From the NCBI RefSeq assembly GCF_003334355.1, contig NZ_QOWP01000008.1: a stretch of 64,000 bases of DNA. One strand, written 5' to 3'. This document shows, piece by piece, positions 13,847 to 56,104 of this stretch (position 1 is its first letter; every line of letters begins with the position of its first letter). Origin of the DNA: Escherichia coli (lineage in GTDB: Bacteria > Pseudomonadota > Gammaproteobacteria > Enterobacterales > Enterobacteriaceae). A program made the position numbers and the translations under genes. The notes beneath the pieces were generated by a model. It ran no database searches, was not told the DNA's origin, and worked only from the letters and a program-made list of their open reading frames with translations.

Positions 13847-13861
13847 AATCGATAGCGCGTT

Positions 13862-13896
13862 AAAAACCCGCCATGCATGATTGCTGGCGGGTTTTT
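13862..13896. terminator. Bidirectional intrinsic terminator between adeP and chrR
   Basis: cccgcca...tggcggg hairpin flanked by an A-tract and a T-tract. Confidence 0.75.
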
Positions 13897-13899
13897 TAT

Positions 13900-14466
13900 T
13901 TAGATCTTAACTCGCTGAATAAACTCACCAAATGCGGTCAATTGCCCGGTCAGGTGGTCCAGCGTACCCTGATCAATCACTTCTCCGGTTTGCGGATCAA
14001 CTTTGTTCTGAATCACGCCGCCCATAAATTCCGGCTTGTTCATCACCATTGCATCGAGGAAAACCAGAATCTGGCGCAGGTGATACTGACAGCGCGCGCC
14101 GCCAATCACGCCCATTGAGCTGGTCTGAATCAATACCGGTTTACCGGCCAGCGGTTGATCCGGCAGGCGGGAAAGCCAGTCGATGGCATTTTTCAGCCCA
14201 CCCGGTATCGAGTAGTTATATTCCGGCGTGACGATCACCACACCGTCAGCCTGACGGATCTGTTCCGCCAGAGCTTCAACCGTTGCTGGAAAACCTTCTT
14301 CCTGCTGTACGTCAGCGTCATACAAGGGAATGTCGGCAATGGATGGTAACGCATTGACTTCCATGCTCGCCGGAGCAATTTTCGGCAGGGTACGTGCAAC
14401 CATGCCATTAAATGAGCCTTTGCGCAGGCTCCCCAGTAACGTAACCACCTGCAATTTTTCAGACAT
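13900..14466 (-). CDS. chrR: NAD(P)H-dependent FMN reductase / chromate reductase ChrR (YieF)
   Basis: 188 aa; flavodoxin-like fold signature LGSLRKGSFN. Confidence 0.92.
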   Translation of the reverse strand: MSEKLQVVTLLGSLRKGSFNGMVARTLPKIAPASMEVNALPSIADIPLYDADVQQEEGFPATVEALAEQIRQADGVVIVTPEYNYSIPGGLKNAIDWLSRLPDQPLAGKPVLIQTSSMGVIGGARCQYHLRQILVFLDAMVMNKPEFMGGVIQNKVDPQTGEVIDQGTLDHLTGQLTAFGEFIQRVKI

Positions 14467-14487
14467 AATGACTCCTGTGGTTGTCTA

Positions 14488-15249
14488 TCAATTTGGCGAA
14501 AAAGACTTCACGGTAGAGAGCTGGGCAAAACGCATCATCCGGCTGGTAGGATTGTTGGCGCGGCTGTGAATATCCGGCAGGCTTTTCCAGCTGTGTTTGC
14601 CATCTAACTCCCAGACACTGAGCTTTTCAATCGCGGGCGTGACCGCCACGGACCACACTAGCACGTCCTCCGCGTCGCATAACGCTTCTACATGATTTAC
14701 ATGAGCACAGTTCAGGCGTCCGGCAATGGGCAGCAGCTGCAGATCGCGCGGATCGTCATTCAAAACATCACCGGTTAGTTTTAGCACGCTTCGGCGCAGC
14801 GTGATGAGCTGCGCCCGCGCTTCGTTAGGATCGTTTTGTTTACTGATCCATAGCGATTCATTGCTGGAAAAGGTGTGGTTATCGGGCGCGTGTGGGCTAT
14901 GAAACCCGCGCGTCGCACGCTGTAGTTCCATATCGAGGCCACATTCACCTTCGGTTGTTAACGCCACGCCAACCATATTCCCGGCATAGGAAATAGAAAA
15001 CGAAGGCAAATTTTTATCACTGAAAACCGGTTTACCTTTCGGCAGGGTGACGATTTCCGGCAATTCGCCAATGCCATACAGCATGAACATCAGTTCTGCG
15101 AGTAAACCTCTGGACGCCAGAAAACGGCTTTGACGATGAGGGGGAATGTTTCGGGCTTCTTGATGACACTGGGAGGGGAGACGAACAGAAATCAGATGTC
15201 CTTCCGTTAAAATCCCTCGGGCAAAGTGAGTCGCCATTTTTCGCTCCAT
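14488..15249 (-). CDS. yieE: Putative phosphopantetheinyl-transferase-like protein YieE
   Basis: About 250-aa ORF (start codon uncertain by a few codons); synteny between chrR and yidZ. Confidence 0.8.
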   Translation of the reverse strand: MERKMATHFARGILTEGHLISVRLPSQCHQEARNIPPHRQSRFLASRGLLAELMFMLYGIGELPEIVTLPKGKPVFSDKNLPSFSISYAGNMVGVALTTEGECGLDMELQRATRGFHSPHAPDNHTFSSNESLWISKQNDPNEARAQLITLRRSVLKLTGDVLNDDPRDLQLLPIAGRLNCAHVNHVEALCDAEDVLVWSVAVTPAIEKLSVWELDGKHSWKSLPDIHSRANNPTSRMMRFAQLSTVKSFSPN

Positions 15250-35522: not shown

Positions 35523-36123
35523 ACTCCCGCTGATCGCCATTTTGCGCGGCATTAAGCCCGACGAGGCGCTGGCGCATGTTGGCGCGGTGATTGACGCCGG
35601 GTTCGACGCGGTTGAAATCCCGCTGAATTCCCCACAATGGGAGCAAAGCATTCCCGCCATCGTTGATGCGTATGGCGACAAGGCGTTGATTGGCGCAGGT
35701 ACGGTACTGAAACCTGAACAGGTCGATGCGCTCGCCAGGATGGGCTGTCAGCTCATCGTTACGCCCAATATCCATAGTGAAGTGATCCGCCGTGCGGTGG
35801 GCTACGGCATGACCGTCTGCCCCGGCTGCGCGACGGCGACCGAAGCCTTTACCGCGCTCGAAGCGGGCGCGCAGGCGCTGAAAATATTTCCGTCATCGGC
35901 TTTTGGTCCGCAATACATCAAAGCGTTAAAAGCGGTATTGCCATCGGACATCGCAGTCTTTGCCGTTGGCGGCGTGACGCCAGAAAACCTGGCGCAGTGG
36001 ATAGACGCAGGTTGTGCTGGGGCGGGCTTAGGCAGCGATCTCTATCGCGCCGGGCAGTCCGTAGAACGCACCGCGCAGCAGGCAGCAGCATTTGTTAAGG
36101 CGTATCGAGAGGCAGTGCAATGA
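35506..36123 (+). CDS. dgoA: 2-dehydro-3-deoxy-6-phosphogalactonate aldolase DgoA
   Basis: 205 aa, KDPG-aldolase family. Confidence 0.93.
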
Positions 36124-37268
36124 AAATCACCAAAATTACCACGTATCGTTTACCTCCCCGCTGGATGTTCCTGAAAATTGAAACCGATGAAGGCGTGGTC
36201 GGTTGGGGCGAGCCCGTGATCGAAGGCCGCGCCCGTACGGTGGAAGCGGCAGTTCACGAGCTGGGTGACTATTTGATTGGTCAGGATCCATCGCGCATCA
36301 ATGACTTATGGCAAGTGATGTATCGCGCCGGATTCTATCGCGGCGGTCCGATCCTGATGAGCGCCATCGCCGGGATTGACCAGGCGTTATGGGATATCAA
36401 AGGTAAAGTGCTGAATGCGCCGGTCTGGCAACTGATGGGCGGCCTGGTTCGCGACAAAATTAAAGCCTACAGTTGGGTTGGCGGCGATCGTCCGGCGGAT
36501 GTTATCGACGGCATTAAAACGCTACGCGAAATCGGCTTCGATACCTTCAAACTGAACGGTTGTGAAGAACTGGGGCTAATTGATAACTCCCGCGCGGTAG
36601 ATGCGGCGGTTAACACCGTGGCACAAATTCGTGAAGCTTTTGGCAATCAGATTGAGTTTGGTCTTGATTTCCACGGTCGCGTCAGCGCGCCGATGGCGAA
36701 AGTGCTGATTAAAGAACTGGAGCCGTATCGCCCGCTGTTTATTGAGGAGCCGGTGCTGGCGGAACAAGCCGAATACTACCCGAAACTGGCGGCACAAACG
36801 CATATTCCACTGGCGGCGGGTGAACGCATGTTCTCACGCTTCGATTTTAAACGCGTGCTGGAGGCAGGCGGTATTTCGATTCTGCAACCGGATCTCTCCC
36901 ACGCGGGCGGTATTACCGAATGCTACAAAATCGCCGGAATGGCAGAAGCCTATGACGTGACCCTTGCGCCGCACTGTCCGCTCGGACCGATTGCACTGGC
37001 GGCTTGCCTGCATATCGACTTTGTTTCCTATAACGCCGTACTTCAGGAACAAAGTATGGGAATTCATTACAACAAAGGCGCGGAGTTACTCGACTTTGTG
37101 AAAAACAAAGAAGACTTCAGCATGGTCGGCGGCTTCTTTAAACCGTTAACGAAACCGGGCTTAGGCGTGGAAATCGACGAAGCTAAAGTGATTGAGTTCA
37201 GTAAAAATGCCCCGGACTGGCGTAATCCGCTCTGGCGTCATGAAGATAACAGCGTAGCAGAGTGGTAA
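36120..37268 (+). CDS. dgoD: D-galactonate dehydratase DgoD (enolase superfamily)
   Basis: 382 aa from [25 protein letters not shown]. Confidence 0.95.
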
Positions 37269-37387
37269 TTCCTGCCACGTAAGCCCCTCATCGGGCACTA
37301 AAACAGCAATACAAAAATATAACCCTCTGTAAATTACAGGGCATGGTGAGCGGCTTCGCTATGCCCAAAATCTGGAGAAAGCTCGCT

Positions 37388-38680
37388 ATGGATATTCCCG
37401 TTAATGCAGCAAAGCCGGGGCGTCGGCGTTATCTGACGCTGGTGATGATCTTTATTACGGTAGTCATTTGTTATGTCGACCGCGCCAACCTGGCCGTGGC
37501 TTCCGCCCATATTCAGGAAGAGTTCGGTATTACCAAAGCGCAAATGGGCTATGTATTTTCGGTCTTCGCCTGGCTTTATACGCTATGTCAGATCCCCGGC
37601 GGTTGGTTTTTAGATCGCGTAGGTTCTCGCGTGACTTATTTTATTGCGATATTTGGCTGGTCAGTGGCGACTTTATTCCAGGGCTTTGCCTCGGGATTAA
37701 TGTCATTAATTGGTCTGCGCGCGATAACCGGTATTTTCGAAGCGCCCGCTTTCCCGACCAATAACCGGATGGTGACCAGCTGGTTCCCGGAACATGAACG
37801 CGCTTCTGCCGTTGGTTTTTATACGTCTGGTCAGTTTGTCGGTCTGGCGTTTCTGACTCCGCTGCTGATCTGGATTCAGGAGATGTTGAGCTGGCACTGG
37901 GTGTTCATTGTCACTGGTGGTATCGGCATTATCTGGTCGCTGATTTGGTTTAAGGTTTATCAGCCGCCGCGCCTGACCAAAGGTATCAGCAAAGCTGAAC
38001 TGGATTACATTCGTGATGGCGGCGGTCTGGTGGATGGTGATGCGCCGGTGAAGAAAGAGGCGCGTCAGCCGTTAACAGCCAAAGACTGGAAACTGGTGTT
38101 CCATCGGAAACTGATCGGCGTCTATCTTGGGCAATTTGCGGTGGCTTCTACACTGTGGTTTTTCTTAACCTGGTTCCCGAACTATTTAACCCAGGAAAAA
38201 GGAATCACGGCGCTGAAAGCAGGCTTTATGACCACGGTGCCATTCCTCGCGGCGTTTGTCGGCGTCCTGCTCTCTGGCTGGGTCGCGGATCTGCTGGTAC
38301 GTAAGGGCTTTTCACTGGGCTTTGCGCGTAAAACGCCGATTATCTGCGGCTTGCTGATCTCCACCTGCATTATGGGCGCTAACTACACTAACGATCCGAT
38401 GATGATTATGTGCCTGATGGCGCTGGCATTCTTCGGCAACGGTTTTGCTTCGATTACCTGGTCGCTGGTCTCTTCTCTGGCACCGATGCGCCTGATTGGT
38501 TTAACCGGTGGCGTGTTTAACTTCGCCGGTGGTCTGGGCGGCATCACCGTTCCGCTGGTGGTGGGGTACCTGGCGCAGGGTTACGGTTTCGCACCTGCAC
38601 TGGTTTATATCTCCGCCGTCGCGTTGATTGGCGCGCTCTCTTACATCCTGCTGGTGGGCGATGTGAAGCGCGTTGGCTAA
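37388..38680 (+). CDS. dgoT: D-galactonate:H+ symporter DgoT (MFS)
   Basis: 430 aa from [22 protein letters not shown]; the track ORF starts 15 codons upstream. Confidence 0.93.
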
Positions 38681-39741
38681 TCTTTCAACTGTGGAATATG
38701 CGCCACACCACTGCGCATAATCCACTTTCTTAAAGCCGGTGCGGTCAGGCATCGGCTTTTTACTATCTTGCCGAAGAGTTTTAAACGCAGTTTGCGGGTG
38801 GCGCGCCAGTAAGCGGTATTGAGCTTCTCTGGCTGCTTCAGTAACACCGAACGCAGAATGTCTGCGCTATCCAGCGCATAGCTAATCCCCTCCAGCGAAC
38901 TGGCGCTGATAAATCCTGCCGCTTCGCCAATCAGAAAGGCGTTGTCCTTACCGCAGACAAAATCCTGCCAGCGTGAGGGAAACAGCACCGTGCATTTTTC
39001 GCTTTTCACCGCCTTACCAAACTGGAACTGAAAGGCGCTCATTTTCTCTTTCAGCGTCGTGAAACGCGTCTGACCGTCTTTCATTGGATAAGCACCGCCA
39101 AAGATAAAATAACCGTCTTTGCTGATACTCCATGAATAACAGTTAGTTATCGAATTATCAAAGATGCAGGAGTAGAACGGCACCGGATGTTTCTCTGCGA
39201 ACCACTGCTGGATAGCGACATATTTACGGATTTGATGATCCGGGTAGAGATGTCGCCGCACCATCGAGTTTGCGCCATCGGCACCGACCAGATAGCGGGC
39301 AGTAATATGTTGCTCCCAGCCGTCTGCACGAAAAATGACATGCCATTTATCATCCTCACGCCAGATTTTTCGACACAGGCTGTCGTGATAAACCTCAACG
39401 CTGGCGGGGATCAGCGATTTCATCCACAAGTCGAAAGCATGGCGATTAATATTGATATAGCTTCGCTGGTAGTTACGCGTGAGCGATGCGGCGACGTCGA
39501 CGGTTTTGACGCTGAAAATCTGCGGATTAGCGATCACATCGACAGGAAGCGTCAGCCCATCGCGAATAAAAGATAGCTGCGCGTCCGGTGCCAGCAGACC
39601 GCCGCAGGGTTTGCTGAAACCTTCAGTACCACACTGGTGCTTTTTATCCAGCGCGATCACCTGCATTTTGCCTGCTAACTTTCGTGCCAACGCCGATCCT
39701 GCCGGGCCGAGGCCAATAATCGCCACGTCGAAATGTTCCAT
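38677..39741 (-). CDS. cbrA: FAD-dependent oxidoreductase CbrA (YidS)
   Basis: 354 aa from [19 protein letters not shown] (FAD-binding GxGxxG). Confidence 0.9.
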
Positions 39742-39805
39742 CTTTTCACTCACATTCATCACGATGGCAAAAGACTATTGTCTGAAAGTGAAGTCCTTGT
39801 GAAGT

Positions 39806-41056
39806 ATGATGGCGGGAACCGTTTTGTATCAGGACCACGCCATGAAACAGATAACCTTTGCTCCCCGTAATCACCTGCTCACCAATACCAATACCTGGAC
39901 GCCCGACAGCCAGTGGCTGGTATTTGACGTGCGTCCTTCTGGGGCGTCGTTTACCGGCGAGACCATTGAGCGTGTGAATATCCATACCGGCGAGGTCGAG
40001 GTTATCTATCGCGCGTCACAGGGCGCACATGTCGGCGTGGTGACCGTTCATCCGAAGTCAGATAAATATGTCTTTATTCACGGCCCTGAAAATCCTGATG
40101 AAACATGGCATTACGATTTCCATCATCGACGCGGAGTCATTGCTAAAGGCGGCAAGGTGAGCAATCTCGATGCAATGGATATTACTGCACCGTACACCCC
40201 AGGAGCGCTGCGCGGCGGCAGCCATGTACATGTCTTTAGCCCGGACGGTGAAAGGGTGAGCTTTACCTATAACGACCATGTAATGCATCAGCTCGATTCG
40301 GCGCTGGATTTGCGAAACGTCGGTGTTGCCGCACCGTTTGGTCCGGTGAATGTACAAAAGCAGCATCCGCGTGAATACAGCGGGAGCCACTGGTGTGTGC
40401 TGGTGAGCAAAACCACGCCCACGCCGCAGCCGGGCAGCGATGAAATCAATCGTGCTTATGAAGAAGGATGGGTAGGAAATCACGCGCTGGCGTTTATTGG
40501 CGACACACTTTCGCCAAAGGGCGAGAAAGTGCCGGAGCTGTTTATCGTTGAGTTACCGCAAGATGAAGCTGGCTGGAAAGCAGCAGGTGATGCGCCGTTA
40601 AGTGGAACGGAAACAACCCTGCCCGCGCCACCGCGTGGCGTCGTGCAGCGACGTTTAACCTTTACCCACCATCGGGCTTATCCGGGGTTAGTCAACGTCC
40701 CGCGCCACTGGGTGCGCTGTAATCCGCAGGGTACACAAATCGCGTTTTTAATGCGAGATGATAACGGCATTGTGCAACTGTGGCTTATCTCGCCACAGGG
40801 CGGCGAGCCGCGCCAGTTAACCCATAACAAAACGGATATTCAGTCTGCATTTAACTGGCATCCATCAGGAGAATGGTTGGGCTTTGTGCTGGATAATCGA
40901 ATTGCTTGTGCCCATGCGCAAAGCGGCGAGGTTGAGTATTTAACCGAAAACCACGCCAATCCACCTTCTGCGGACGCCGTGGTCTTCTCGCCGGATGGTC
41001 AATGGCTGGCGTGGATGGAAGGCGGCCAGCTGTGGATCACCGAAACTGATCGCTAA
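39806..41056 (+). CDS. yidR: Beta-propeller-like protein YidR (DUF3748)
   Basis: About 415-aa ORF; start uncertain (39806, 39809 or 39842); synteny. Confidence 0.85.
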   Translation: MMAGTVLYQDHAMKQITFAPRNHLLTNTNTWTPDSQWLVFDVRPSGASFTGETIERVNIHTGEVEVIYRASQGAHVGVVTVHPKSDKYVFIHGPENPDETWHYDFHHRRGVIAKGGKVSNLDAMDITAPYTPGALRGGSHVHVFSPDGERVSFTYNDHVMHQLDSALDLRNVGVAAPFGPVNVQKQHPREYSGSHWCVLVSKTTPTPQPGSDEINRAYEEGWVGNHALAFIGDTLSPKGEKVPELFIVELPQDEAGWKAAGDAPLSGTETTLPAPPRGVVQRRLTFTHHRAYPGLVNVPRHWVRCNPQGTQIAFLMRDDNGIVQLWLISPQGGEPRQLTHNKTDIQSAFNWHPSGEWLGFVLDNRIACAHAQSGEVEYLTENHANPPSADAVVFSPDGQWLAWMEGGQLWITETDR

Positions 41057-41057
41057 A

Positions 41058-41390
41058 TCAGTTATCAGGCATTCTGGCCGGTGGAATAACCGCATTGGTG
41101 GCTTGCGCGTTGGCTTCGCTTTTTTCAACGCGTGAGCGCACCGAGCTGTCTTTGCGGAACACATCCCACGGTAATAAAAGCGTGTCCATCACAGCGGTAA
41201 ACGGCATATCGAGAATCGCCAGCGACTTAGTGCCCCAGTTGGTTTCATCATCGCCAATCATGGTGGCGCTGGCGCGGGTGCCGGGATACGTTCCTTCTTT
41301 CCCTCCGGTATGGGACATCACGCTGGAGCATCCTCCGAGTAATGCCATTCCACTGCATATCATGAACGCTAACAACACATTTCTTATCAT
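41058..41390 (-). CDS. yidQ: Putative outer-membrane lipoprotein YidQ
   Basis: 110 aa from MIRNVLLAFMICSGMALLGGC (lipobox). Confidence 0.85.
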   Translation of the reverse strand: MIRNVLLAFMICSGMALLGGCSSVMSHTGGKEGTYPGTRASATMIGDDETNWGTKSLAILDMPFTAVMDTLLLPWDVFRKDSSVRSRVEKSEANAQATNAVIPPARMPDN

Positions 41391-41564
41391 AATAAATTCA
41401 TCTGTTGATCGTGGGTGTTGGCCTGATGAGTTATAGCGATCCCTTGCTGAAAATAACATCATCATTACGTCGCTCTGTGGCGGCAATCGCACTTTAACGT
41501 TTCGTGCTGCCCCCTCAGTCTATGCAATAGACCATAAACTGCAAAAAAAAGTCCGCTGATAAGG

Positions 41565-41593
41565 CTTGAAAAGTTCATTTTCAGACCCATTTT
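41565..41593 (+). promoter_or_regulatory. Sigma-32 heat-shock promoter of ibpA; the roughly 100-nt 5'UTR that follows is the known ROSE-like RNA-thermometer region
   Basis: CTTGAAA, 14-nt spacer, then CCCATTTT, matching the sigma-32 consensus. Confidence 0.8.
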
Positions 41594-41695
41594 TACATCG
41601 TAGCCGATGAGGACGCGCCTGATGGGTGTTCTGGCTACCTGACCTGTCCATTGTGGAAGGTCTTACATTCTCGCTGATTTCAGGAGCTATTGATT

Positions 41696-42109
41696 ATGCG
41701 TAACTTTGATTTATCCCCGCTTTACCGTTCTGCTATTGGATTTGACCGTTTGTTTAACCACTTAGAAAACAACCAGAGCCAGAGTAATGGCGGCTACCCT
41801 CCGTATAACGTTGAACTGGTAGACGAAAACCATTACCGCATTGCTATCGCTGTGGCTGGTTTTGCTGAGAGCGAACTGGAAATTACCGCCCAGGATAATC
41901 TGCTGGTGGTGAAAGGTGCTCACGCCGACGAACAAAAAGAGCGCACCTATCTGTACCAGGGCATCGCTGAACGCAACTTTGAACGCAAATTCCAGTTAGC
42001 TGAGAACATTCATGTTCGTGGCGCTAACCTGGTAAATGGTTTGCTGTATATCGATCTCGAACGCGTGATTCCGGAAGCGAAAAAACCGCGCCGTATCGAA
42101 ATCAACTAA
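41696..42109 (+). CDS. ibpA: Small heat-shock protein IbpA
   Basis: 137 aa from [19 protein letters not shown]; alpha-crystallin domain. Confidence 0.97.
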
Positions 42110-42220
42110 TTCCCTAAGGCCGCCTGGCGCGGCCTGACATCTCCATGCTCGCCGTCAGGGAGCATATGCGAATCTTCAGATTTGCAGGTACTTACTCGCT
42201 TCTTAGAAGGAGAAATGACT

Positions 42221-42649
42221 ATGCGTAACTTCGATTTATCCCCACTGATGCGTCAATGGATCGGTTTTGACAAACTGGCCAACGCACTGCAAAACGCCGG
42301 TGAAAGTCAGAGCTTCCCGCCGTACAACATTGAGAAAAGCGACGATAACCACTACCGCATTACCCTTGCGCTGGCAGGTTTCCGTCAGGAAGATTTAGAG
42401 ATTCAACTGGAAGGTACGCGCCTGAGCGTAAAAGGCACGCCGGAGCAGCCAAAAGAAGAGAAAAAATGGCTGCATCAAGGGCTTATGAATCAGCCATTTA
42501 GCCTGAGCTTTACGCTGGCTGAAAATATGGAAGTCTCTGGCGCAACCTTCGTAAACGGTTTACTGCATATTGATTTAATTCGTAATGAGCCTGAACCCAT
42601 CGCAGCGCAGCGTATCGCTATCAGCGAACGTCCCGCGTTAAATAGCTAA
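42221..42649 (+). CDS. ibpB: Small heat-shock protein IbpB
   Basis: 142 aa from [19 protein letters not shown]; paralogue of IbpA. Confidence 0.97.
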
Positions 42650-42664
42650 CTAGCTATTCTCTTT

Positions 42665-42695
42665 GCCCCGCCATTCTGGTGGGGCTTTTTTTGTC
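42665..42695 (+). terminator. Intrinsic terminator after ibpB
   Basis: gccccgcc...ggggc hairpin followed by a T7 tract. Confidence 0.75.
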
Positions 42696-42844
42696 TTTCT
42701 TCTTCAACAATGCGTTAAATTTCGCCTGTTTAAGATATTTCGGCACGTTCTTTCCCGTGATAATGTGCGCTATAAGGCAAATCTGCTTCACCGATTCAGC
42801 CATAATCCGTAGCAATTAAAATGTTATCTCAAGAGAAATGGACG

Positions 42845-44506
42845 ATGAGTGATATAGCATTAACGGTCAGTATTTTGGCTTTGGTGGCAGTCGTCGGTTT
42901 GTTTATCGGCAACGTCAAATTTCGCGGCATAGGATTAGGTATTGGCGGCGTGCTGTTTGGTGGGATCATCGTCGGCCATTTTGTTTCTCAGGCGGGGATG
43001 ACATTAAGTAGCGATATGCTGCATGTTATTCAGGAATTTGGCCTGATTCTGTTCGTTTATACTATCGGGATTCAGGTAGGGCCGGGCTTCTTTGCCTCAT
43101 TGCGCGTCTCCGGATTACGCCTCAACCTGTTTGCTGTTCTGATCGTCATCATCGGTGGTCTGGTTACCGCCATCCTGCATAAACTGTTTGATATTCCACT
43201 GCCGGTAGTGCTGGGGATTTTCTCCGGTGCGGTAACCAATACGCCAGCGCTGGGGGCAGGGCAGCAGATCTTGCGCGACTTGGGTACACCAATGGAAATG
43301 GTCGATCAGATGGGGATGAGTTACGCGATGGCGTATCCATTCGGCATTTGCGGGATATTGTTCACCATGTGGATGTTGCGGGTTATTTTCCGCGTCAATG
43401 TCGAGACAGAAGCCCAGCAGCACGAGTCTTCACGCACCAATGGCGGCGCGCTGATCAAGACTATCAATATTCGCGTTGAGAACCCTAACCTGCATGATTT
43501 AGCCATTAAAGATGTACCGATTCTCAACGGCGACAAAATTATCTGCTCGCGTCTGAAACGAGAAGAAACCCTAAAAGTACCTTCGCCAGATACCATTATC
43601 CAACTGGGCGATTTGCTGCATCTGGTGGGGCAGCCAGCGGATTTACATAATGCGCAACTGGTGATTGGTCAGGAGGTCGATACCTCGCTGTCCACGAAAG
43701 GCACTGATTTGCGCGTCGAGCGTGTGGTGGTCACCAATGAAAACGTGCTTGGTAAGCGTATTCGCGACCTGCATTTTAAAGAACGCTATGACGTTGTTAT
43801 CTCGCGCCTGAACCGTGCCGGGGTCGAACTGGTCGCCAGTGGCGATATCAGCCTGCAGTTCGGCGATATCCTCAATCTGGTGGGGCGTCCGTCCGCAATT
43901 GATGCCGTTGCCAATGTGCTGGGGAATGCGCAGCAAAAACTGCAACAGGTTCAGATGCTGCCAGTGTTTATTGGCATCGGGCTAGGCGTATTGTTAGGTT
44001 CTATTCCCGTCTTTGTGCCAGGATTCCCGGCCGCGTTGAAACTGGGGCTGGCGGGCGGACCGCTGATTATGGCGTTGATCCTCGGGCGTATCGGCAGTAT
44101 CGGCAAGCTGTACTGGTTTATGCCGCCAAGCGCCAACCTCGCGCTGCGGGAGCTGGGGATCGTGCTGTTCCTCTCGGTCGTTGGTCTGAAATCTGGTGGG
44201 GATTTTGTGAATACCCTGGTCAATGGCGAAGGGCTAAGCTGGATTGGTTATGGTGCCCTGATCACCGCCGTTCCGCTGATTACTGTTGGCATTCTGGCGC
44301 GGATGTTAGCCAAAATGAATTACCTGACCATGTGCGGGATGCTGGCAGGTTCCATGACCGATCCTCCGGCGCTGGCGTTTGCTAATAATCTTCATCCAAC
44401 CAGCGGTGCGGCGGCGCTCTCTTACGCCACTGTCTATCCGTTGGTAATGTTCCTGCGCATTATCACCCCCCAATTACTGGCGGTGCTCTTCTGGAGTATC
44501 GGTTAA
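42845..44506 (+). CDS. yidE: Putative transporter YidE (AAE family, two TrkA-C/RCK_C domains)
   Basis: 553 aa from [22 protein letters not shown]; membrane repeats flanking central soluble domains. Confidence 0.93.
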
Positions 44507-45140
44507 CTCTTTTCCGGGTGGAGTCGCCGTAAATGGTACTCCACCTGGTATTCGCTGGCATTTCTGAACATCACTGAATAATTCAAAAACTCCCCGCTCT
44601 CGCTATATGACAACGAGGTTATCCGCAGCAGTGGCGTGTGTTCCGCTACCTTCATTTGCCGCGCCAGCAGTCTATCGGCGAGCACTGGCGTCAGGCTTTC
44701 ATAATTACCGCCAATCAAAATCCCGCACTCTTGTTCAATATATTCAAACTTCGACCCTTCCAGATGTTGCAGCGAAAGATTACGGAACAGTTTTACCGGC
44801 ATATAGCTGTCTTCCAGCATCAGCGGTTTCCCTTCCACAAAACGAACGCGACGGGAGAAGTAGATCTGCTCGTTGATTTGAATCCGTAACTGGCTGGCAA
44901 TGGCCGGAGGCGCAGGCATGATTTCAAAAATCAGCACCTGGCTGGTGACCGTTTTTCCCTGCCGTGGCGGCGGACCACCAATCCCCACGCTACCAGCAGG
45001 TCAATGGCTTTACGGATGGTCATCCGCGATACCGCAAATTCTTCCGCCAACTTTTTTTCACCGGGAAGAAGGCTATTTAGCGTGAAATCTGCGGAATTAA
45101 GTCGAATTCTTAACCGCTCCGCAATGCTTTTGTAGATCAT
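44503..45140 (-). pseudogene. yidP: GntR/HutC-family regulator YidP, reading frame disrupted
   Basis: The N-terminal wHTH (MIYKSIAERL...VVRRHG) sits in one frame (track ORF 44931-45299) and the UTRA-like C-terminus (QGKTVTSQVLIF...HPEKS) in another (track ORF 44503-44988); the frames overlap by 58 nt. Confidence 0.7.
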
Positions 45141-45435
45141 CTCTAGATCTCTTTTTTGCCTGCAAGCCCGGGTAATGCGCCCACAAGTTCTGCTTAATCG
45201 ATTGAAAAAACATCTTTTTTTTAAACATGTGTTCGATGCTGTGTACCAGTGCTCACAGATGTCTACTTTTTCGCGAAAACGTAGATCTCTACCGCCCAAC
45301 GAAAAGCATGAAAGCGATCACGAATCCCATTGGGTCGTCATGTTCTGCCGATCGCATCTTCCTATCCTCGCTCCAGGCCTGCCGCATAACCAATCAGGCT
45401 TCCTACTTACAGAATTGAGAAAAGAGGATGTGGAA

Positions 45436-49264
<3,829 letters not shown>

Positions 49265-49430
49265 TTTAATATCCCTCCGGCGAATTATGCTCACAACCTG
49301 AACTTAACAGAAAACAATCCGTTCAGGGATACGACGTTTGTATTTTAAGAATCTGACTGCCTGACCCGACGCATTTTACCTCTCCCTATATTCATGCGTC
49401 CGGGACATAAACATAAATAAGGGCTATGAG

Positions 49431-51146
49431 ATGAATTCGTTACAAATCTTGAGTTTTGTCGGTTTTACGCTGCTGGTGGCGGTGATCACCTGGTGGAAGG
49501 TCCGCAAAACAGATACCGGATCGCAACAAGGCTATTTTCTTGCCGGACGTTCACTAAAAGCGCCGGTTATTGCCGCTTCGTTAATGCTAACCAACCTTTC
49601 CACGGAACAACTGGTCGGCCTTTCCGGGCAGGCCTACAAAAGCGGCATGTCGGTGATGGGCTGGGAAGTGACTTCAGCGGTGACGCTGATCTTCCTCGCG
49701 CTAATCTTTTTACCGCGCTATCTGAAGCGCGGCATTGCCACCATCCCCGATTTTCTGGAGGAACGTTATGATAAAACGACGCGTATTATCATCGACTTCT
49801 GCTTCCTAATTGCCACCGGCGTCTGCTTTCTGCCGATTGTTCTCTACTCCGGCGCGTTGGCGCTCAACAGCCTGTTTCACGTCGGGGAATCGCTACAGAT
49901 TTCTCACGGTGCGGCTATCTGGCTACTGGTAATTTTGCTTGGTCTGGCGGGAATTTTGTATGCGGTGATCGGCGGACTGCGCGCAATGGCAGTGGCGGAC
50001 TCCATCAACGGTATTGGGCTGGTTATCGGCGGGTTGATGGTGCCGGTATTTGGCCTGATCGCGATGGGCAAGGGCAGCTTTATGCAGGGCATTGAGCAAC
50101 TCACCACCGTTCACGCCGAGAAATTAAACTCAATCGGTGGCCCGACCGATCCCTTGCCGATTGGCGCGGCATTTACCGGTTTGATTCTGGTGAACACCTT
50201 TTACTGGTGTACAAATCAGGGCATCGTGCAACGCACGCTGGCGTCAAAAAGCCTGGCGGAAGGGCAAAAGGGGGCGCTGTTAACGGCGGTGCTGAAAATG
50301 CTCGACCCGCTGGTACTGGTGCTGCCAGGGTTGATTGCGTTTCATCTGTATCAGGATTTACCGAAAGCCGACATGGCCTACCCGACGCTGGTCAATAACG
50401 TTCTGCCAGTGCCAATGGTGGGTTTCTTCGGCGCGGTGTTATTTGGTGCGGTGATCAGTACCTTCAACGGCTTTCTGAATAGCGCCAGTACGTTATTCAG
50501 TATGGGTATTTACCGTCGCATCATTAACCAGAATGCCGAGCCGCAGCAGCTGGTCACCGTCGGGCGCAAATTTGGTTTCTTTATCGCTATCGTTTCGGTG
50601 CTGGTCGCGCCGTGGATCGCCAACGCGCCGCAGGGGCTGTATAGCTGGATGAAACAGCTCAACGGCATTTACAACGTGCCGCTGGTTACCATCATCATTA
50701 TGGGCTTTTTCTTCCCGCGCATCCCGGCGCTGGCGGCAAAAGTAGCGATGGGGATTGGCATAATCAGCTACATCACCATCAACTATCTGGTGAAGTTCGA
50801 CTTCCATTTCCTCTATGTGCTGGCCTGTACGTTCTGCATCAACGTGGTCGTGATGCTGGTGATCGGTTTTATCAAACCGCGCGCCACGCCGTTCACCTTC
50901 AAAGATGCGTTTGCGGTGGACATGAAACCGTGGAAAAACGTCAAGATCGCGTCAATTGGCATCCTGTTCGCGATGATTGGCGTCTATGCCGGGCTGGCTG
51001 AATTCGGCGGCTACGGTACGCGCTGGTTAGCGATGATCAGTTATTTCATTGCCGCCGTAGTGATTGTCTACCTGATTTTTGACAGCTGGCGGCATCGTCA
51101 CGACCCAGCCGTAACCTTTACTCCCGACGGGAAGGATAGCCTATGA
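49431..51146 (+). CDS. yidK: Sodium:solute symporter family transporter YidK
   Basis: 571-aa polytopic SSF-type membrane protein. Confidence 0.9.
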   Translation: MNSLQILSFVGFTLLVAVITWWKVRKTDTGSQQGYFLAGRSLKAPVIAASLMLTNLSTEQLVGLSGQAYKSGMSVMGWEVTSAVTLIFLALIFLPRYLKRGIATIPDFLEERYDKTTRIIIDFCFLIATGVCFLPIVLYSGALALNSLFHVGESLQISHGAAIWLLVILLGLAGILYAVIGGLRAMAVADSINGIGLVIGGLMVPVFGLIAMGKGSFMQGIEQLTTVHAEKLNSIGGPTDPLPIGAAFTGLILVNTFYWCTNQGIVQRTLASKSLAEGQKGALLTAVLKMLDPLVLVLPGLIAFHLYQDLPKADMAYPTLVNNVLPVPMVGFFGAVLFGAVISTFNGFLNSASTLFSMGIYRRIINQNAEPQQLVTVGRKFGFFIAIVSVLVAPWIANAPQGLYSWMKQLNGIYNVPLVTIIIMGFFFPRIPALAAKVAMGIGIISYITINYLVKFDFHFLYVLACTFCINVVVMLVIGFIKPRATPFTFKDAFAVDMKPWKNVKIASIGILFAMIGVYAGLAEFGGYGTRWLAMISYFIAAVVIVYLIFDSWRHRHDPAVTFTPDGKDSL

Positions 51147-52636
51147 AACGCCCCAATTTTCTGTTCGTCATGACCGATACCCAGGCCACCAATATGGTCG
51201 GTTGCTATAGCGGTAAACCGCTGAATACGCAAAATATTGATAGTCTGGCGGCGGAAGGTATTCGCTTTAATTCCGCCTACACCTGTTCACCGGTTTGTAC
51301 GCCTGCACGGGCCGGACTATTTACCGGTATCTACGCTAACCAGTCCGGCCCGTGGACCAACAACGTCGCGCCAGGCAAAAACATCTCCACTATGGGGCGC
51401 TACTTTAAGGATGCCGGCTATCACACCTGTTACATCGGCAAATGGCATCTCGACGGTCATGACTATTTCGGCACTGGCGAGTGTCCGCCGGAGTGGGACG
51501 CTGATTACTGGTTCGATGGGGCGAACTATCTTAGCGAACTGACGGAAAAAGAGATTAGCCTGTGGCGCAATGGCCTAAACAGCGTCGAAGATTTACAGGC
51601 GAACCATATCGACGAAACCTTCACCTGGGCGCATCGTATCAGCAATCGGGCGGTGGATTTTCTGCAACAGCCTGCGCGCGCAGACGAGCCTTTCCTGATG
51701 GTGGTTTCGTATGATGAGCCGCATCACCCGTTCACCTGTCCGGTGGAGTATTTAGAGAAATACGCTGATTTTTACTACGAGCTGGGCGAGAAAGCACAGG
51801 ATGACCTGGCTAACAAACCGGAACATCACCGCTTATGGGCGCAGGCGATGCCATCGCCAGTCGGTGATGACGGGCTTTATCACCATCCGCTCTATTTTGC
51901 CTGTAATGACTTTGTTGATGACCAAATCGGACGGGTCATCAATGCCTTAACGCCAGAGCAACGTGAAAATACGTGGGTTATTTATACCTCCGATCACGGC
52001 GAAATGATGGGCGCACATAAGCTGATCAGTAAAGGGGCGGCGATGTATGACGACATCACCCGCATTCCGCTGATCATCCGTTCGCCGCAAGGGGAGCGGC
52101 GACAGGTCGATACGCCAGTCAGTCATATCGATTTACTGCCGACAATGATGGCGCTGGCAGATATTGAAAAACCAGAGATTCTGCCGGGGGAAAATATCCT
52201 TGCCGTGAAAGAGCCACGCGGCGTGATGGTGGAATTTAACCGCTACGAGATTGAGCATGACAGCTTTGGCGGTTTTATTCCGGTGCGTTGCTGGGTGACG
52301 GATGACTTTAAACTGGTACTCAACCTCTTCACCAGTGATGAACTTTACGATCGCCGTAATGACCCAAATGAAATGCATAACCTGATCGATGATATCCGTT
52401 TTGCAGACGTTCGCAGCAAAATGCATGACGCCTTATTGGATTACATGGACAAAATTCGCGATCCGTTCCGCAGTTACCAATGGAGTCTGCGTCCGTGGCG
52501 TAAAGATGCACGGCCGCGCTGGATGGGGGCGTTTCGTCCACGTCCACAAGATGGCTATTCGCCAGTTGTACGCGACTATGACACCGGCCTACCGACACAA
52601 GGGGTGAAGGTGGAGGAGAAAAAACAGAAGTTCTGA
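51143..52636 (+). CDS. yidJ: Putative sulfatase YidJ
   Basis: 497 aa; sulfatase signature CSPVCTPARAGLFTG (Cys-type FGly motif); translationally coupled to yidK. Confidence 0.92.
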   Translation: MKRPNFLFVMTDTQATNMVGCYSGKPLNTQNIDSLAAEGIRFNSAYTCSPVCTPARAGLFTGIYANQSGPWTNNVAPGKNISTMGRYFKDAGYHTCYIGKWHLDGHDYFGTGECPPEWDADYWFDGANYLSELTEKEISLWRNGLNSVEDLQANHIDETFTWAHRISNRAVDFLQQPARADEPFLMVVSYDEPHHPFTCPVEYLEKYADFYYELGEKAQDDLANKPEHHRLWAQAMPSPVGDDGLYHHPLYFACNDFVDDQIGRVINALTPEQRENTWVIYTSDHGEMMGAHKLISKGAAMYDDITRIPLIIRSPQGERRQVDTPVSHIDLLPTMMALADIEKPEILPGENILAVKEPRGVMVEFNRYEIEHDSFGGFIPVRCWVTDDFKLVLNLFTSDELYDRRNDPNEMHNLIDDIRFADVRSKMHDALLDYMDKIRDPFRSYQWSLRPWRKDARPRWMGAFRPRPQDGYSPVVRDYDTGLPTQGVKVEEKKQKF

Positions 52637-52640
52637 CGAT

Positions 52641-52671
52641 AATGCCCGCTGATGATCACCCGGCGGGCATT
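52641..52671. terminator. Bidirectional terminator between yidJ and yidI
   Basis: atgcccgc ... gcgggcat stem. Confidence 0.7.
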
Positions 52672-52682
52672 ATTCAGGCTGC

Positions 52683-53132
52683 TTAAACCAGTGAACCGCC
52701 GGTCAGGAAGGAAAAGATAAGGAATATCAGCAAAATGCTGCACACGATGCCGATACCAAAAAGCAAGGTATGGAAAGCCAGCGTCCCGCCGCCAAAAACC
52801 AGCGCGCCGCGAATGCCCCAGCGATTTTCCTTACGCATACCGCCAATAAATGCGCAAAGTAGCGCAGCAATGGCCAGTGCGATACCGCTTTGATTGAGGA
52901 TTTTATCGACATCTACGTCCTCTTTTTTCTCCACGGTGGTAATTTTTTCGCCTTTTATTCCGGCGAGAAGACCTCTTTTAATTTCAGCCGTTTTGTCCGC
53001 CACGATGCTTTCAAACGTTGGCGGTGGTGCGGAGAAAGGGCCGAATGAAAAGTGGATAATCCCCATCATTAAAGCGATGGCACCGAACAGCATGCCCAAT
53101 GAACTGATTTTATTTTGAGCTATGATACCCAT
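52683..53132 (-). CDS. yidI: Inner membrane protein YidI
   Basis: 149 aa from MGIIAQNKISSLGMLFG; the track ORF extends 36 codons upstream. Confidence 0.8.
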   Translation of the reverse strand: MGIIAQNKISSLGMLFGAIALMMGIIHFSFGPFSAPPPTFESIVADKTAEIKRGLLAGIKGEKITTVEKKEDVDVDKILNQSGIALAIAALLCAFIGGMRKENRWGIRGALVFGGGTLAFHTLLFGIGIVCSILLIFLIFSFLTGGSLV

Positions 53133-53239
53133 CTGACCTCCTTGTAGCGGATGGCAAAAGCATATCAGGAAACGGGCGGACGAAATTCTTAAAAAAACCG
53201 CTAAAGGTAGAGCGTTAGTGAAATTGCAAAGGAGCAACA

Positions 53240-53587
53240 ATGAAAATTTCCCGCCTCGGAGAAGCGCCTGATTACCGCTTCTCGCTGGCTAATGAGCGTA
53301 CTTTTCTGGCGTGGATCCGTACTGCACTAGGATTTCTGGCGGCGGGGGTTGGGCTTGATCAACTTGCGCCAGATTTCGCCACGCCCGTCATTCGCGAACT
53401 GCTGGCGTTGTTGTTGTGTCTGTTTTCCGGCGGGTTAGCGATGTATGGCTACTTGCGCTGGTTACGCAATGAAAAAGCGATGCGTCTGAAAGAGGACCTG
53501 CCCTACACCAACAGCTTATTAATCATTAGCTTAATATTGATGGTCGTGGCGGTGATCGTTATGGGACTGGTGTTGTATGCCGGATAG
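53240..53587 (+). CDS. yidH: Inner membrane protein YidH (DUF202)
   Basis: 115 aa. Confidence 0.88.
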   Translation: MKISRLGEAPDYRFSLANERTFLAWIRTALGFLAAGVGLDQLAPDFATPVIRELLALLLCLFSGGLAMYGYLRWLRNEKAMRLKEDLPYTNSLLIISLILMVVAVIVMGLVLYAG

Positions 53588-53939
53588 CCGCAAAGCCAGA
53601 CGCATTGCCGACCCAGGACTGCAGCCGGAGCGCACATCACTGGCGTGGTTTCGTACCATGCTGGGCTACGGCGCGTTGATGGCGTTGGCTATCAAACACA
53701 ACTGGCACCAGGCGGGCATGTTATTCTGGATTTCGATTGGCATTCTCGCCATCGTGGCGCTGATCCTCTGGCACTACACCCGTAATCGCAATTTAATGGA
53801 TGTCACGAATAGCGATTTTTCCCAATTTCACGTAGTCCGTGACAAATTTTTGATCTCCCTCGCGGTGTTATCTCTCGCAATACTGTTTGCTGTAACGCAT
53901 ATACATCAACTTATCGTATTTATTGAGAGAGTCGCATGA
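53577..53939 (+). CDS. yidG: Inner membrane protein YidG (DUF202)
   Basis: 120 aa; overlaps yidH; paralogous fold. Confidence 0.88.
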   Translation: MPDSRKARRIADPGLQPERTSLAWFRTMLGYGALMALAIKHNWHQAGMLFWISIGILAIVALILWHYTRNRNLMDVTNSDFSQFHVVRDKFLISLAVLSLAILFAVTHIHQLIVFIERVA

Positions 53940-54433
53940 CAGGAAGTCAGGTCATTGATGCTGAAGAGGACAGGCATAAACTGGTTGTAGAGTACAAGGA
54001 TGCTCTGCAACCTGCCGATTTTTATCACAATTTCAAACAGCGGGGCATCCGCTCCGTACAGCTCATTCCCTATCTTGAATTTGATGACCGGGGCGATCTG
54101 ACGGCCGCTTCGGTGACAGCAGAGCTGTGGGGGAAATTTTTAATTGCCCTGTTCGAGTGTTGGGTGCGGGCAGATATCAGTCGTATCTCGATTGAGCTTT
54201 TTGACGCCACCTTACAAAAATGGTGTGGCAGCGAAAACCCGCAACCGCGCTGTGACTGCCAGGCGTGCGACTGGCATCGCCTGTGCCCGCACGCTCGGCA
54301 GGAGACGCCAGACAGCGTGCTTTGTGCGGGCTATCAGGCGTTTTATTCTTACTCCGCACCGCATATGCGGGTGATGCGTGATCTGATAAAGCAGCATCGT
54401 TCTCCCATGGAGCTGATGACGATGCTGCGGTGA
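53936..54433 (+). CDS. yidF: Cysteine-rich protein YidF (anaerobic sulfatase maturase-like C-terminal fragment)
   Basis: 165 aa; cysteine cluster CDCQACDWHRLCPH. Confidence 0.85.
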   Translation: MTGSQVIDAEEDRHKLVVEYKDALQPADFYHNFKQRGIRSVQLIPYLEFDDRGDLTAASVTAELWGKFLIALFECWVRADISRISIELFDATLQKWCGSENPQPRCDCQACDWHRLCPHARQETPDSVLCAGYQAFYSYSAPHMRVMRDLIKQHRSPMELMTMLR

Positions 54434-54440
54434 CGTGCGC

Positions 54441-55625
54441 TTAAACGGGCTGCCCCTGATGCGACATCCGCGTCGCCAGCGGCAGCCAGCACAGCACGAT
54501 CAACAATCCCATTAAGGTCATCAACAACCCCAGGCTGCCCTGACCGGTTTGCGGCAACATCGCAGAGAGCGACGCCAGCACGCCGGAACCAATGTTTTGC
54601 AGACCGCCGACCAGCGCGCCAGCCGTGCCCGCCAGGAAGGGGAACGGCTCCATCGCGCCGCTGGTCGCCAGCGGAAACAGCATCCCGGCACCGAAAAAGA
54701 ACAGCGCGGCGGGAACGAGCAGCGTCCAGACATTCATCACGCCAAACCAGTCGGGGATCCACATCAGCAAGCCAGCCAGCAGGCAGCAGATAACCGACTG
54801 CCACATTAACGTGGAGAAGCGTTTATTGGGACGTCCGGCAAACCATGCGCCAAAAAACGCTGCCGGAATCGGCAGAATAAACAAAATACTGACCGTCATA
54901 CTGCTCAGCCCTAACACCGCGCCCATCAGCACGCCGGAGCAGGCTTCAAAGGCGGCAATCCCGGCCAGACCGCCAATCAGCATCAGCAAATAACAGTTAA
55001 AACCGCTGTTACCGAAAAGCGTTTTATAACTGGTAAGCAGGCGCGTGCGCGGTGCATCGACCGGACGCGTTTCCGGCATCCAGCGGGCCATACTGAAGGT
55101 CACACCAGCACAAAGAACCAACAAAAAGAGATAACAGGCGCGCCAGTTCCACATCGTATCCAGCAGACCGCCGATTAGCGGTGCGAGCAACGGACTGACG
55201 AGAATCCCCATGTTTAACAGGCTGTTAGCATGGCGCAACTGTGTCCGTTCATATAAATCTCGCGGCAAAGTACGCGCCATTACGCCGCCAACGCCGGTGC
55301 CCATCCCCTGCATCGCGCTGGCGGCAATCAACACCGTCAAACTGGAGGTCGTGACCGCGACCAGCGTTGCCAGCATAAAAATGGACATTCCGACGAGGAT
55401 CACCGGTCGGCGGCCCACGCGGTCGGAAATCGGGCCATAAAACAGCTGTGAGACACCGTAAGTCAGCAGATAAGCGCCCATTACGCTCTGCACCGCCCCT
55501 TCACGGACGTTGAGATCGCGCGCCATATCGGCAATAGCTGGAATATAAATGGTTTGCGCCATCTGACCGACGGCCACGAGTAATACCAACATCAATAACA
55601 AATTGACGTTTCTTTGCCTTTTCAT
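54441..55625 (-). CDS. emrD: MFS multidrug efflux pump EmrD
   Basis: 394 aa from MKRQRNVNLLLMLVLLVAVGQMAQTIYIP. Confidence 0.95.
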   Translation of the reverse strand: MKRQRNVNLLLMLVLLVAVGQMAQTIYIPAIADMARDLNVREGAVQSVMGAYLLTYGVSQLFYGPISDRVGRRPVILVGMSIFMLATLVAVTTSSLTVLIAASAMQGMGTGVGGVMARTLPRDLYERTQLRHANSLLNMGILVSPLLAPLIGGLLDTMWNWRACYLFLLVLCAGVTFSMARWMPETRPVDAPRTRLLTSYKTLFGNSGFNCYLLMLIGGLAGIAAFEACSGVLMGAVLGLSSMTVSILFILPIPAAFFGAWFAGRPNKRFSTLMWQSVICCLLAGLLMWIPDWFGVMNVWTLLVPAALFFFGAGMLFPLATSGAMEPFPFLAGTAGALVGGLQNIGSGVLASLSAMLPQTGQGSLGLLMTLMGLLIVLCWLPLATRMSHQGQPV

Positions 55626-55798
55626 TATCACGGATGCTTTTATAAAAATAATTAGAATAAGTCACTACGCATTCCCATAAATGCGGGAGAGGAATCTATC
55701 ACATTGATGAATGTTAGCCAGATATACGCCAGGAATGGGGAATTGTTTAGCGGCAGAATATGTAAACAAAAGCGGCAATAAATGTTGCCGGGAGAGAT

Positions 55799-55838
55799 GG
55801 TAGGGCGGATAAGATGCGTCAGCATCGCATCCGACACC
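55799..55838. repeat. REP element upstream of emrD
   Basis: ggtagggcggataagatgcgtcagcatcgcatccgacacc. Confidence 0.65.
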
Positions 55839-55860
55839 AACCCGCACGCTAAATATAAAA

Positions 55861-55882
55861 GGGGAGCGGTTTCCCGCTCCCC
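55861..55882 (-). terminator. Intrinsic terminator of the tisAB transcript
   Basis: Perfect hairpin ggggagcgg-tttc-ccgctcccc with a T-rich tract on the minus strand. Confidence 0.85.
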
Positions 55883-55904
55883 TTTGGTGCGACTTGAATC
55901 TGAA

Positions 55905-55994
55905 TTACTTCAGGTATTTCAGAACAGCATCAAGCAGTTGCAGTGCTGCAACAATGAGTTTGAGGATAAGAATGGCGATATCCACCAGGCTCAT
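55905..55994 (-). CDS. tisB: Type I toxin TisB (29-aa membrane peptide), not in the ORF track
   Basis: Minus-strand translation gives MSLVDIAILILKLIVAALQLLDAVLKYLK; start overlaps the tisA stop (ATGA); SD aggag. Confidence 0.93.
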   Translation of the reverse strand: MSLVDIAILILKLIVAALQLLDAVLKYLK

Positions 55995-56104
55995 ACGCGT
56001 CTCCTGTGGTTCAGGAGCACTGCCAGCTGACGTACCTTTCCGCTGCCTGTTGCCAGCTGTTGTGCACGCGGTATCTCAAGGAGAAACGTTGTGCTTGTTG
56101 ACAT
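55991..56104 (-). other. tisA: tisA upstream ORF (37 codons; reported in the literature as not translated)
   Basis: Minus-strand ORF MSTSTTFLLEIPRAQQLATGSGKVRQLAVLLNHRRRV; its 5' end overlaps the IstR-1 target segment. Confidence 0.75.

Follow-up and report, generated by a model that had tools for sequence, protein, structure and literature searches.

Gene content of the yidP locus

In the window (the whole 64,000-nt stretch of Escherichia coli DNA that was analysed, from contig NZ_QOWP01000008.1), a yidP pseudogene of the GntR/HutC regulator family lies on the minus strand (44503–45140; 638 nt compared with 717 nt in the intact gene). Divergent from it, on the plus strand, is an aglA/glvC-type gene for a PTS EIICB component (45436–47052), inactivated by an amber stop in place of codon 170 and followed directly by an aglB/glvA-type gene for a GH4 6-phospho-alpha-glucosidase (47052–48374), an intact ORF of 440 codons with the length of the protein annotated in relatives (WP_000160104.1). 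Two features were identified between yidP and the EIICB gene: a CRP-like site, read on the minus strand (GTGATCGCTTTCAT; 45308–45321, about 115 nt ahead of the EIICB start codon; conserved block GTGA-N6-TCA[TCA]), and, by repeat search, the inverted repeat GTCTAC-N14-GTAGAT (45257–45290), a candidate YidP operator.

From the yidP start codon (ATG at 45140) through the stop (44503) there are 638 nt, a number not divisible by 3, and two minus-strand ORFs (44503–44988 and 44931–45299) overlap here at 44931–44988, so that the split across two frames first suggested by a sequence-only reading is borne out, together with the other facts given in that reading. The frame with the native start codon (44931–45140) encodes 69 aa, consisting of 60 native residues (MIYKSIAERL...LLVAWGLVVRRHG, ending VVRRHG) and nine out-of-frame residues (REKRSPARC) ahead of a TGA at 44931–44933. 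It retains the helix-turn-helix and the first wing strand and is matched by Pfam GntR at residues 3–61 (model positions 2–60 of 64), the last wing strand being absent. The UTRA domain is stranded out of frame with the start (44503–44961): the second frame (QGKTVTSQVLIFEIMPAPP (QGKTVTSQVL)...HPEKS, ending in TAA at 44503–44505) translates to a sequence identical to residues 87–238 of intact YidP, and Pfam recognises a complete UTRA in this ORF (model positions 2–140 of 141). In intact YidP, GntR (PF00392) covers residues 3–64 (E = 7e-21) and UTRA (PF07702) residues 87–224 (E = 2e-30); the window allele has remnants of both domains, not carried on one polypeptide. Judged by these matches, the window yidP is a member of the GntR superfamily and HutC subfamily by descent, yet a pseudogene. 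UTRA is the dimerisation and effector-binding domain of the HutC family. A 69-aa fragment lacking the second wing strand, the linker and UTRA would presumably be unable to dimerise and so could not act as a HutC-type regulator.

A 79-bp deletion between short direct repeats

Alignment of the window (44400–45300) with the intact allele of strain WGI31CT (717 nt, 238 aa, annotated as yidP) and with strain 720632 revealed, relative to intact yidP, one gap of exactly 79 bp at ACGGCAG and no other indels, a deterministic difference in sequence that owes nothing to statistics. The earlier reading had called for an out-of-frame internal deletion of about 80 bp, not a single-base indel, joined at the end of the HTH wing and the linker of a protein that should have 238 aa when intact, and the alignment agrees on each of these points. 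In the intact allele the missing segment opens with ACGGCAG and a second ACGGCAG follows directly after it, placing the two copies 79 bp apart; the window has lost one 7-bp copy together with the 72 bases that separate the two, and a single ACGGCAG is kept at the junction (44959–44965, minus strand). The deletion takes out codons 61–86 (SGTYLVRKDVLHQTASLTGLVEVLKR) plus one base, shifting the frame after Gly60 into nine further codons and a stop at codon 70. The deleted stretch comprises the last strand of the GntR wing and all of the linker that precedes UTRA (residue 87). The product is without the conserved G-x-G-T-[FY]-V strand of the wing; in alignment, the deleted SGTYLV faces the conserved RGTFVS wing strand of NagR/YvoA (PDB 2wv0).

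The segment is missing here and present in outgroups and most conspecifics, with flanking repeats of which one copy is kept. Deletions with this short-direct-repeat signature usually come from slipped-strand or microhomology-mediated events, and on this signature the yidP deletion would have arisen by RecA-independent slipped-strand mispairing, or another microhomology-mediated deletion, between the ACGGCAG copies. Folding of the deleted segment was compared with that of shuffled sequences: the coding strand gave a weak signal (z = -2.4; small hairpins possible) and the other strand was not significant, and hairpin-assisted slippage was dropped as evidence.

Distribution of the deletion allele

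When 44400–45300 was compared by megablast with 5,426 complete E. coli genomes, most aligned over 980 bp, versus 901 bp in the window. The central part of yidP was present in about 4,279 genomes and the extra 79 bp in about 4,000, while in UTI89 and similar genomes only the yidE end of the query was matched. A 44-bp junction query was used to find carriers; intact genomes share at most 26 contiguous bases with it and megablast requires 28, so intact genomes cannot seed a match. The identical junction was found in 252 of the 5,426 genomes (~5%; ~6% of those bearing yidP), in one copy each and always in the chromosome. Carriers include BL21(DE3), BL21, C43(DE3) and other derivatives of E. coli B, as well as NCTC10444, NCTC10537, AW1.7, Symbioflor G3/10, O157:H16 isolates and isolates labelled ST361. 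The 638-nt allele of the window is identical in 720632 and NCTC10444, and over 20 kb the nearest genomes to the window are NCTC10444, KV7 and PSS-12, none of them identical to it. In all nine carriers examined, including 720632, NCTC10444 and BL21(DE3), PGAP labels the locus ‘GntR family transcriptional regulator, frameshifted’.

A short repeat-flanked deletion can in principle come from mis-assembly, with the 79 bp present in the real genome and dropped from the assembly. However, the exact 44-bp junction recurs in 252 independently sequenced complete genomes, and the closest relatives of the window over 20 kb all carry the deletion. Together with the RefSeq frameshift flag, this number of matching genomes excludes an assembly error in practice.

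Orthologues of YidP align over essentially all 238 residues in E. albertii, Citrobacter, Klebsiella, Raoultella, Kluyvera, Kosakonia, Buttiauxella, Proteus and others (53–97% identity), among them Cedecea and Mangrovibacter. This makes the long form ancestral and the 79-bp deletion derived; all outgroup orthologues being full length, the short allele was ruled out as the ancestral form. The deletion allele is already known, being annotated as a pseudogene in RefSeq genomes that include BL21(DE3), and is an ordinary, widespread polymorphism: the presence of the same allele in ~5% of complete genomes and the prior annotation mean that the deletion is real but ordinary, and it represents no new kind of element or mechanism.

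Haplotype backgrounds of the deletion

Haplotypes tabulated from 89 informative SNPs across 4.4 kb placed the deletion on two deep local backgrounds, differing from each other at about 40 sites. The window, 720632, NCTC10444, an O157:H16 isolate, A29 and OkiPb01676 belong to hapA, BL21(DE3) and D2 to hapB, and PEC408 is a recombinant. The hapA/hapB difference nearest to the junction lies 17 bp upstream of it (44982; synonymous GGA/GGG). A further, divergent carrier, Ec-U10, is hapA-like around the junction but differs at a base 9 bp downstream of it (44950) and has foreign flanking sequence.

These backgrounds raise the question of whether the 79-bp deletion arose at least twice by slippage at ACGGCAG, as expected of a recurrent hotspot, or once and then spread. 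Recurrence is favoured by the depth of the two haplotypes and the divergence of Ec-U10, by the share of each major haplotype (about half each when the 252 carriers are sampled at even intervals) and by the intact parents available: WGI31CT, identical through yidP, is the intact counterpart of hapA, while the genome search returned no intact match above 99.5% to the reconstructed intact hapB ancestor. However, genomes with either yidP allele include both carriers and non-carriers of the EIICB amber codon 1 kb away, so that all four combinations occur; this implies recombination or recurrence within 1 kb, and recombination is clearly active at this locus. The pattern expected from recurrence would also result from import of a short patch of <270 bp or from a synonymous transition occurring in parallel at 44982, and the named carrier strains, which we take to be largely phylogroup A, would fit a single origin. 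Recurrence is accordingly given slightly less than an even chance; on the haplotype data, recurrent slippage appears about as likely as one event carried to other backgrounds in short recombination tracts.

Mosaic decay of the divergent genes

The amber codon in the window EIICB gene results from CAG>TAG at 45943–45945 (alignment with strain 720632, and translation). This allele is common to only 14 genomes; 720632, NCTC10444 and BL21(DE3) have an intact homologue of 1617 nt. With the amber codon in place the pathway is dead, and loss of yidP is without metabolic consequence in the window.

A comparison of the locus in the window and 18 sampled genomes revealed several combinations of lesions. 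In the window yidP has the deletion, EIICB has the amber codon and the glucosidase gene is intact. In 720632, NCTC10444, BL21(DE3), D2, the O157:H16 isolate, A29 and OkiPb01676 the yidP deletion is accompanied by intact EIICB and glucosidase genes, and in PEC408 and Ec-U10 by an intact EIICB gene and an 815-nt frameshifted glucosidase remnant, about 508 bp short of the intact 1,323-nt gene. Among genomes with intact yidP, the same 815-nt remnant is found next to an EIICB gene with an internal stop in K-12 (DH1) and next to an intact EIICB gene in 8479, Z142-3, MRSN346595, Ecol_224 and WGI31CT; 504239 has the EIICB amber codon and a frameshifted glucosidase gene, and 10671 (O157:H7) and MS6198 have all three genes intact. 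From these sequences the locus appears to decay mosaically in E. coli by independent lesions, the yidP deletion being one among them. The glv homologues of K-12 (glvCBG) have been described as cryptic or truncated (PMC5309279).

The best overall explanation, held with high confidence, is that the window carries a yidP null allele, created by the 79-bp deletion at ACGGCAG, that is a widespread polymorphism in a decaying locus. Two other readings of the allele were considered. In the first, the loss would be adaptive, turning on a silent alpha-glucoside PTS operon where the structural genes are intact, as in E. coli B. Most characterised HutC-family members (NagR, DasR, TreR, MngR, PhnF) are repressors, and among sampled carriers the glucosidase gene is intact in 8/10 and the EIICB gene in 9/10, compared with both intact in 2/9 sampled non-carriers. 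However, this association vanishes when genomes are collapsed to independent haplotypes (glv genes intact in two of the four carrier haplotypes), and it was rejected as evidence of selection. The carriers PEC408 and Ec-U10 have the 508-bp glvA deletion, the EIICB gene of the window itself has the amber codon, and comparisons of B and K-12 in the literature searched report no alpha-glucoside phenotype. The BL21-type allele has, in addition, a Gly>Val change at 44711 in the dead UTRA part, as expected under neutral decay. Adaptive loss is thus considered unlikely, and neutral decay is the better-supported reading. The stronger version, in which a recurrent 79-bp hotspot has independently switched off YidP in several lineages, E. 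coli B among them, and selection has favoured the ensuing constitutive expression of the operon where the aglA/aglB-like genes are intact, is judged very unlikely.

In the second reading the gene would be split but functional, with the DNA-binding and UTRA fragments reassembling or acting alone. Pfam still recognises both domain remnants, and the UTRA part is covered by an ORF that starts at a GTG (44988), but no Shine-Dalgarno-like sequence could be read ahead of this GTG and the deletion has physically removed the conserved second strand of the wing. The Gly>Val change in the UTRA remnant of the BL21-type allele and the handling of the locus as a pseudogene by PGAP also speak against a working split gene, which we regard as hardly credible.

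YidP as a probable local regulator

A one-genome-per-species collection yielded 69 orthologous loci, 65 of them with enough upstream sequence to be evaluated. In all 65, ranging from relatives of Escherichia to Proteus, the YidP orthologue is divergent from EIICB and the GH4 6-phospho-alpha-glucosidase gene is directly next. Genes of this type, aglA/aglB in Klebsiella and glvC/glvA in Bacillus, serve to take up alpha-glucosides through the PTS and to hydrolyse them. Spacing between yidP and EIICB is 220–340 bp across the orthologous loci, and protein identity to E. coli is 69–85% for EIICB and 80–92% for the glucosidase.

A CRP-like GTGA-N6-TCAT is present in 65/65 loci at a fixed distance, about 113–118 nt upstream of the EIICB start (2.5% of shuffles). 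The strict palindrome GTCTAC-N14-GTAGAC is found in 44 of the 65 (2% of shuffles), with near-variants in the remaining aligned loci; its half-sites are kept across Enterobacteriaceae and Proteus while the surrounding intergenic sequence varies. The half-sites, GTCTA/TAGAC, resemble the GGTCTAGACC core of the dre sites of NagR/DasR, and this likeness to HutC-type operators makes the palindrome a reasonable candidate for the YidP operator. Scanning the intergenic region for promoters and terminators gave no hits and no sigma-70 consensus.

Invariant synteny and conserved intergenic motifs support YidP as a local regulator, and we infer that the divergent alpha-glucoside PTS operon (aglA/aglB-like) is under its control, probably by way of the conserved GTCTAC-N14-GTAGAC palindrome. 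Entries for YidP in the literature searched are list entries only, naming a putative or uncharacterised GntR-family regulator, with no experiment tying it to the glv genes, and a search for aglR/GntR control of alpha-glucosidase operons found nothing relevant. The proposal that YidP is the likely regulator of the glv genes has gained in support from the 65/65 synteny and the conserved motifs, as a link still drawn by inference.

The sign of this regulation may be either. The centre of the palindrome is an estimated ~41 bp farther from EIICB than the CRP-like site. The candidate operator thus lies upstream of that site relative to glv and, by our estimate, at about -100 as counted from the likely promoter of glv, no classical position for a repressor. 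The palindrome could serve autoregulation of yidP only, interference with CRP, or activation, and YidP might be a repressor or an activator alike. Whatever the bearing of yidP loss on repression of the operon, derepression in the window would have no metabolic effect because of the EIICB amber codon.

In derivatives of E. coli B yidP is naturally null and the structural genes are intact; K-12 is the reverse. The conserved palindrome provides a concrete operator candidate for YidP, and the locus clearly exemplifies how genes in E. coli decay in a mosaic fashion, with recombination. The wider importance of the allele is small, as the pseudogene is flagged in the public annotation of hundreds of genomes, including BL21(DE3).

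Comparison with known systems

The closest known counterpart is the yidP pseudogene of BL21(DE3) (ECD_RS18625, NC_012971.2), with the same 638 nt, the same junction and the same neighbours (yidE on one side, the EIICB and 6-phospho-alpha-glucosidase genes on the other). The BL21-type yidP differs from that of the window at three sites (45075, 44982 and 44711, window coordinates), and the EIICB gene, with an amber codon in the window, is intact in BL21(DE3). K-12 YidP (b3684, WP_001300779.1) is encoded at the same locus and is the same protein outside the 26 deleted codons. K-12 keeps all 238 yidP codons, unlike the window, and has an internal stop in EIICB and a frameshifted glucosidase gene.

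Among solved structures the best homologue is NagR/YvoA of Bacillus subtilis (PDB 2wv0, 4u0v, 4wwc; YidP residues 2–233, E = 3e-24), the structural archetype of HutC-type repressors. Like YidP it consists of a winged HTH and a UTRA domain, but the two are only distantly related and differ in effector and targets. The half-sites in the yidP region are ~14 A/T-rich bases apart, whereas those of the NagR/DasR dre sites abut.

GlvR of B. subtilis belongs to the RpiR family, not to GntR/HutC, and, as a different protein from YidP, is uninformative on the sign of YidP action. The glv operon of B. subtilis has the same enzyme/transporter pair, GlvA and GlvC (PMC5309279), and GlvR (YfiA) is given as a positive regulator in the reference list of the same source.

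The EIICB and GH4 genes of the window are the E. coli counterparts of Klebsiella aglA and aglB. In Klebsiella-group loci, protein identity is 80% and 89%, respectively, and the two genes are likewise divergent from a YidP orthologue. According to PMC5309279 (citing Pikis 2006), aglA/aglB of Klebsiella pneumoniae are functional, supporting growth on isomaltose and sucrose isomers. In contrast to this functional system, the transporter gene of the window is truncated and its regulator gene has the 79-bp deletion.

Conserved elements between yidP and the EIICB gene

Comparison of the window with the corresponding intergenic regions of orthologous loci from other species (L006-L073) revealed two phylogenetically conserved elements between yidP and the divergent EIICB gene. 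The first, a palindrome (GTCTAC-N14-GTAGAC; window 45,257–45,290) conserved across species, is a candidate YidP operator. In most of these species GTCTAC occurs a third time, overlapping the ribosome-binding site of yidP. The second, also conserved across species, is a CRP-like site (GTGA-N6-TCAT; 45,308–45,321) with a fixed spacing to the start of the EIICB gene. At its other end yidP (ending at 44,503) is convergent with yidE (ending at 44,506), and at their stop codons the two genes share a 4-bp overlap (44,503–44,506) that is also present in reference annotations.

Distribution of yidP and haplotypes carrying the deletion

In ~1,150 of the 5,426 complete E. coli genomes searched (e.g. UTI89), the query is matched at its yidE end alone and yidP is wholly absent; the yidP-glv block is therefore accessory in E. 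coli. The identical 79-bp deletion of yidP is shared by two or more deep local haplotypes, which differ 17 bp from the junction (flanking SNPs at window positions 44,982, 44,950 and 44,711, compared in loci L004, L085 and L087), and the stranded UTRA part of the BL21-type allele carries an additional Gly>Val change. This distribution is compatible with either recurrent deletion or short-patch recombination. No genome identical to the window over 36,000–56,000 was found in the collection. In its closest relative, NCTC10444, yidK contains an internal stop (13,432–15,147 of that locus, L003); yidK of the window (49,431–51,146) is an intact orf of 571 codons.

Mosaic decay of the yidP-glv locus

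Across E. coli the yidP-glv locus is in mosaic decay: when 18 genomes were sampled together with the window, only two of these 19 sequences had all three genes intact. In the window, the aglA/glvC-type PTS EIICB gene (45,436–47,052) is truncated by an amber codon (CAG>TAG at codon 170; 45,943–45,945), an allele common to only 14 of the 5,426 complete genomes. Strain 504239 is among these 14 and has an intact yidP, so that the yidP deletion and the EIICB amber codon are present in all four combinations. The internal stops of EIICB differ between K-12 and 504239 (loci L088 and L095). The 6-phospho-alpha-glucosidase gene is commonly reduced to an 815-nt remnant (L002 and L086-L092, among the compared loci), found alongside both intact and deleted yidP, which falls ~508 bp short of the full gene length and corresponds to the glvG type of K-12.
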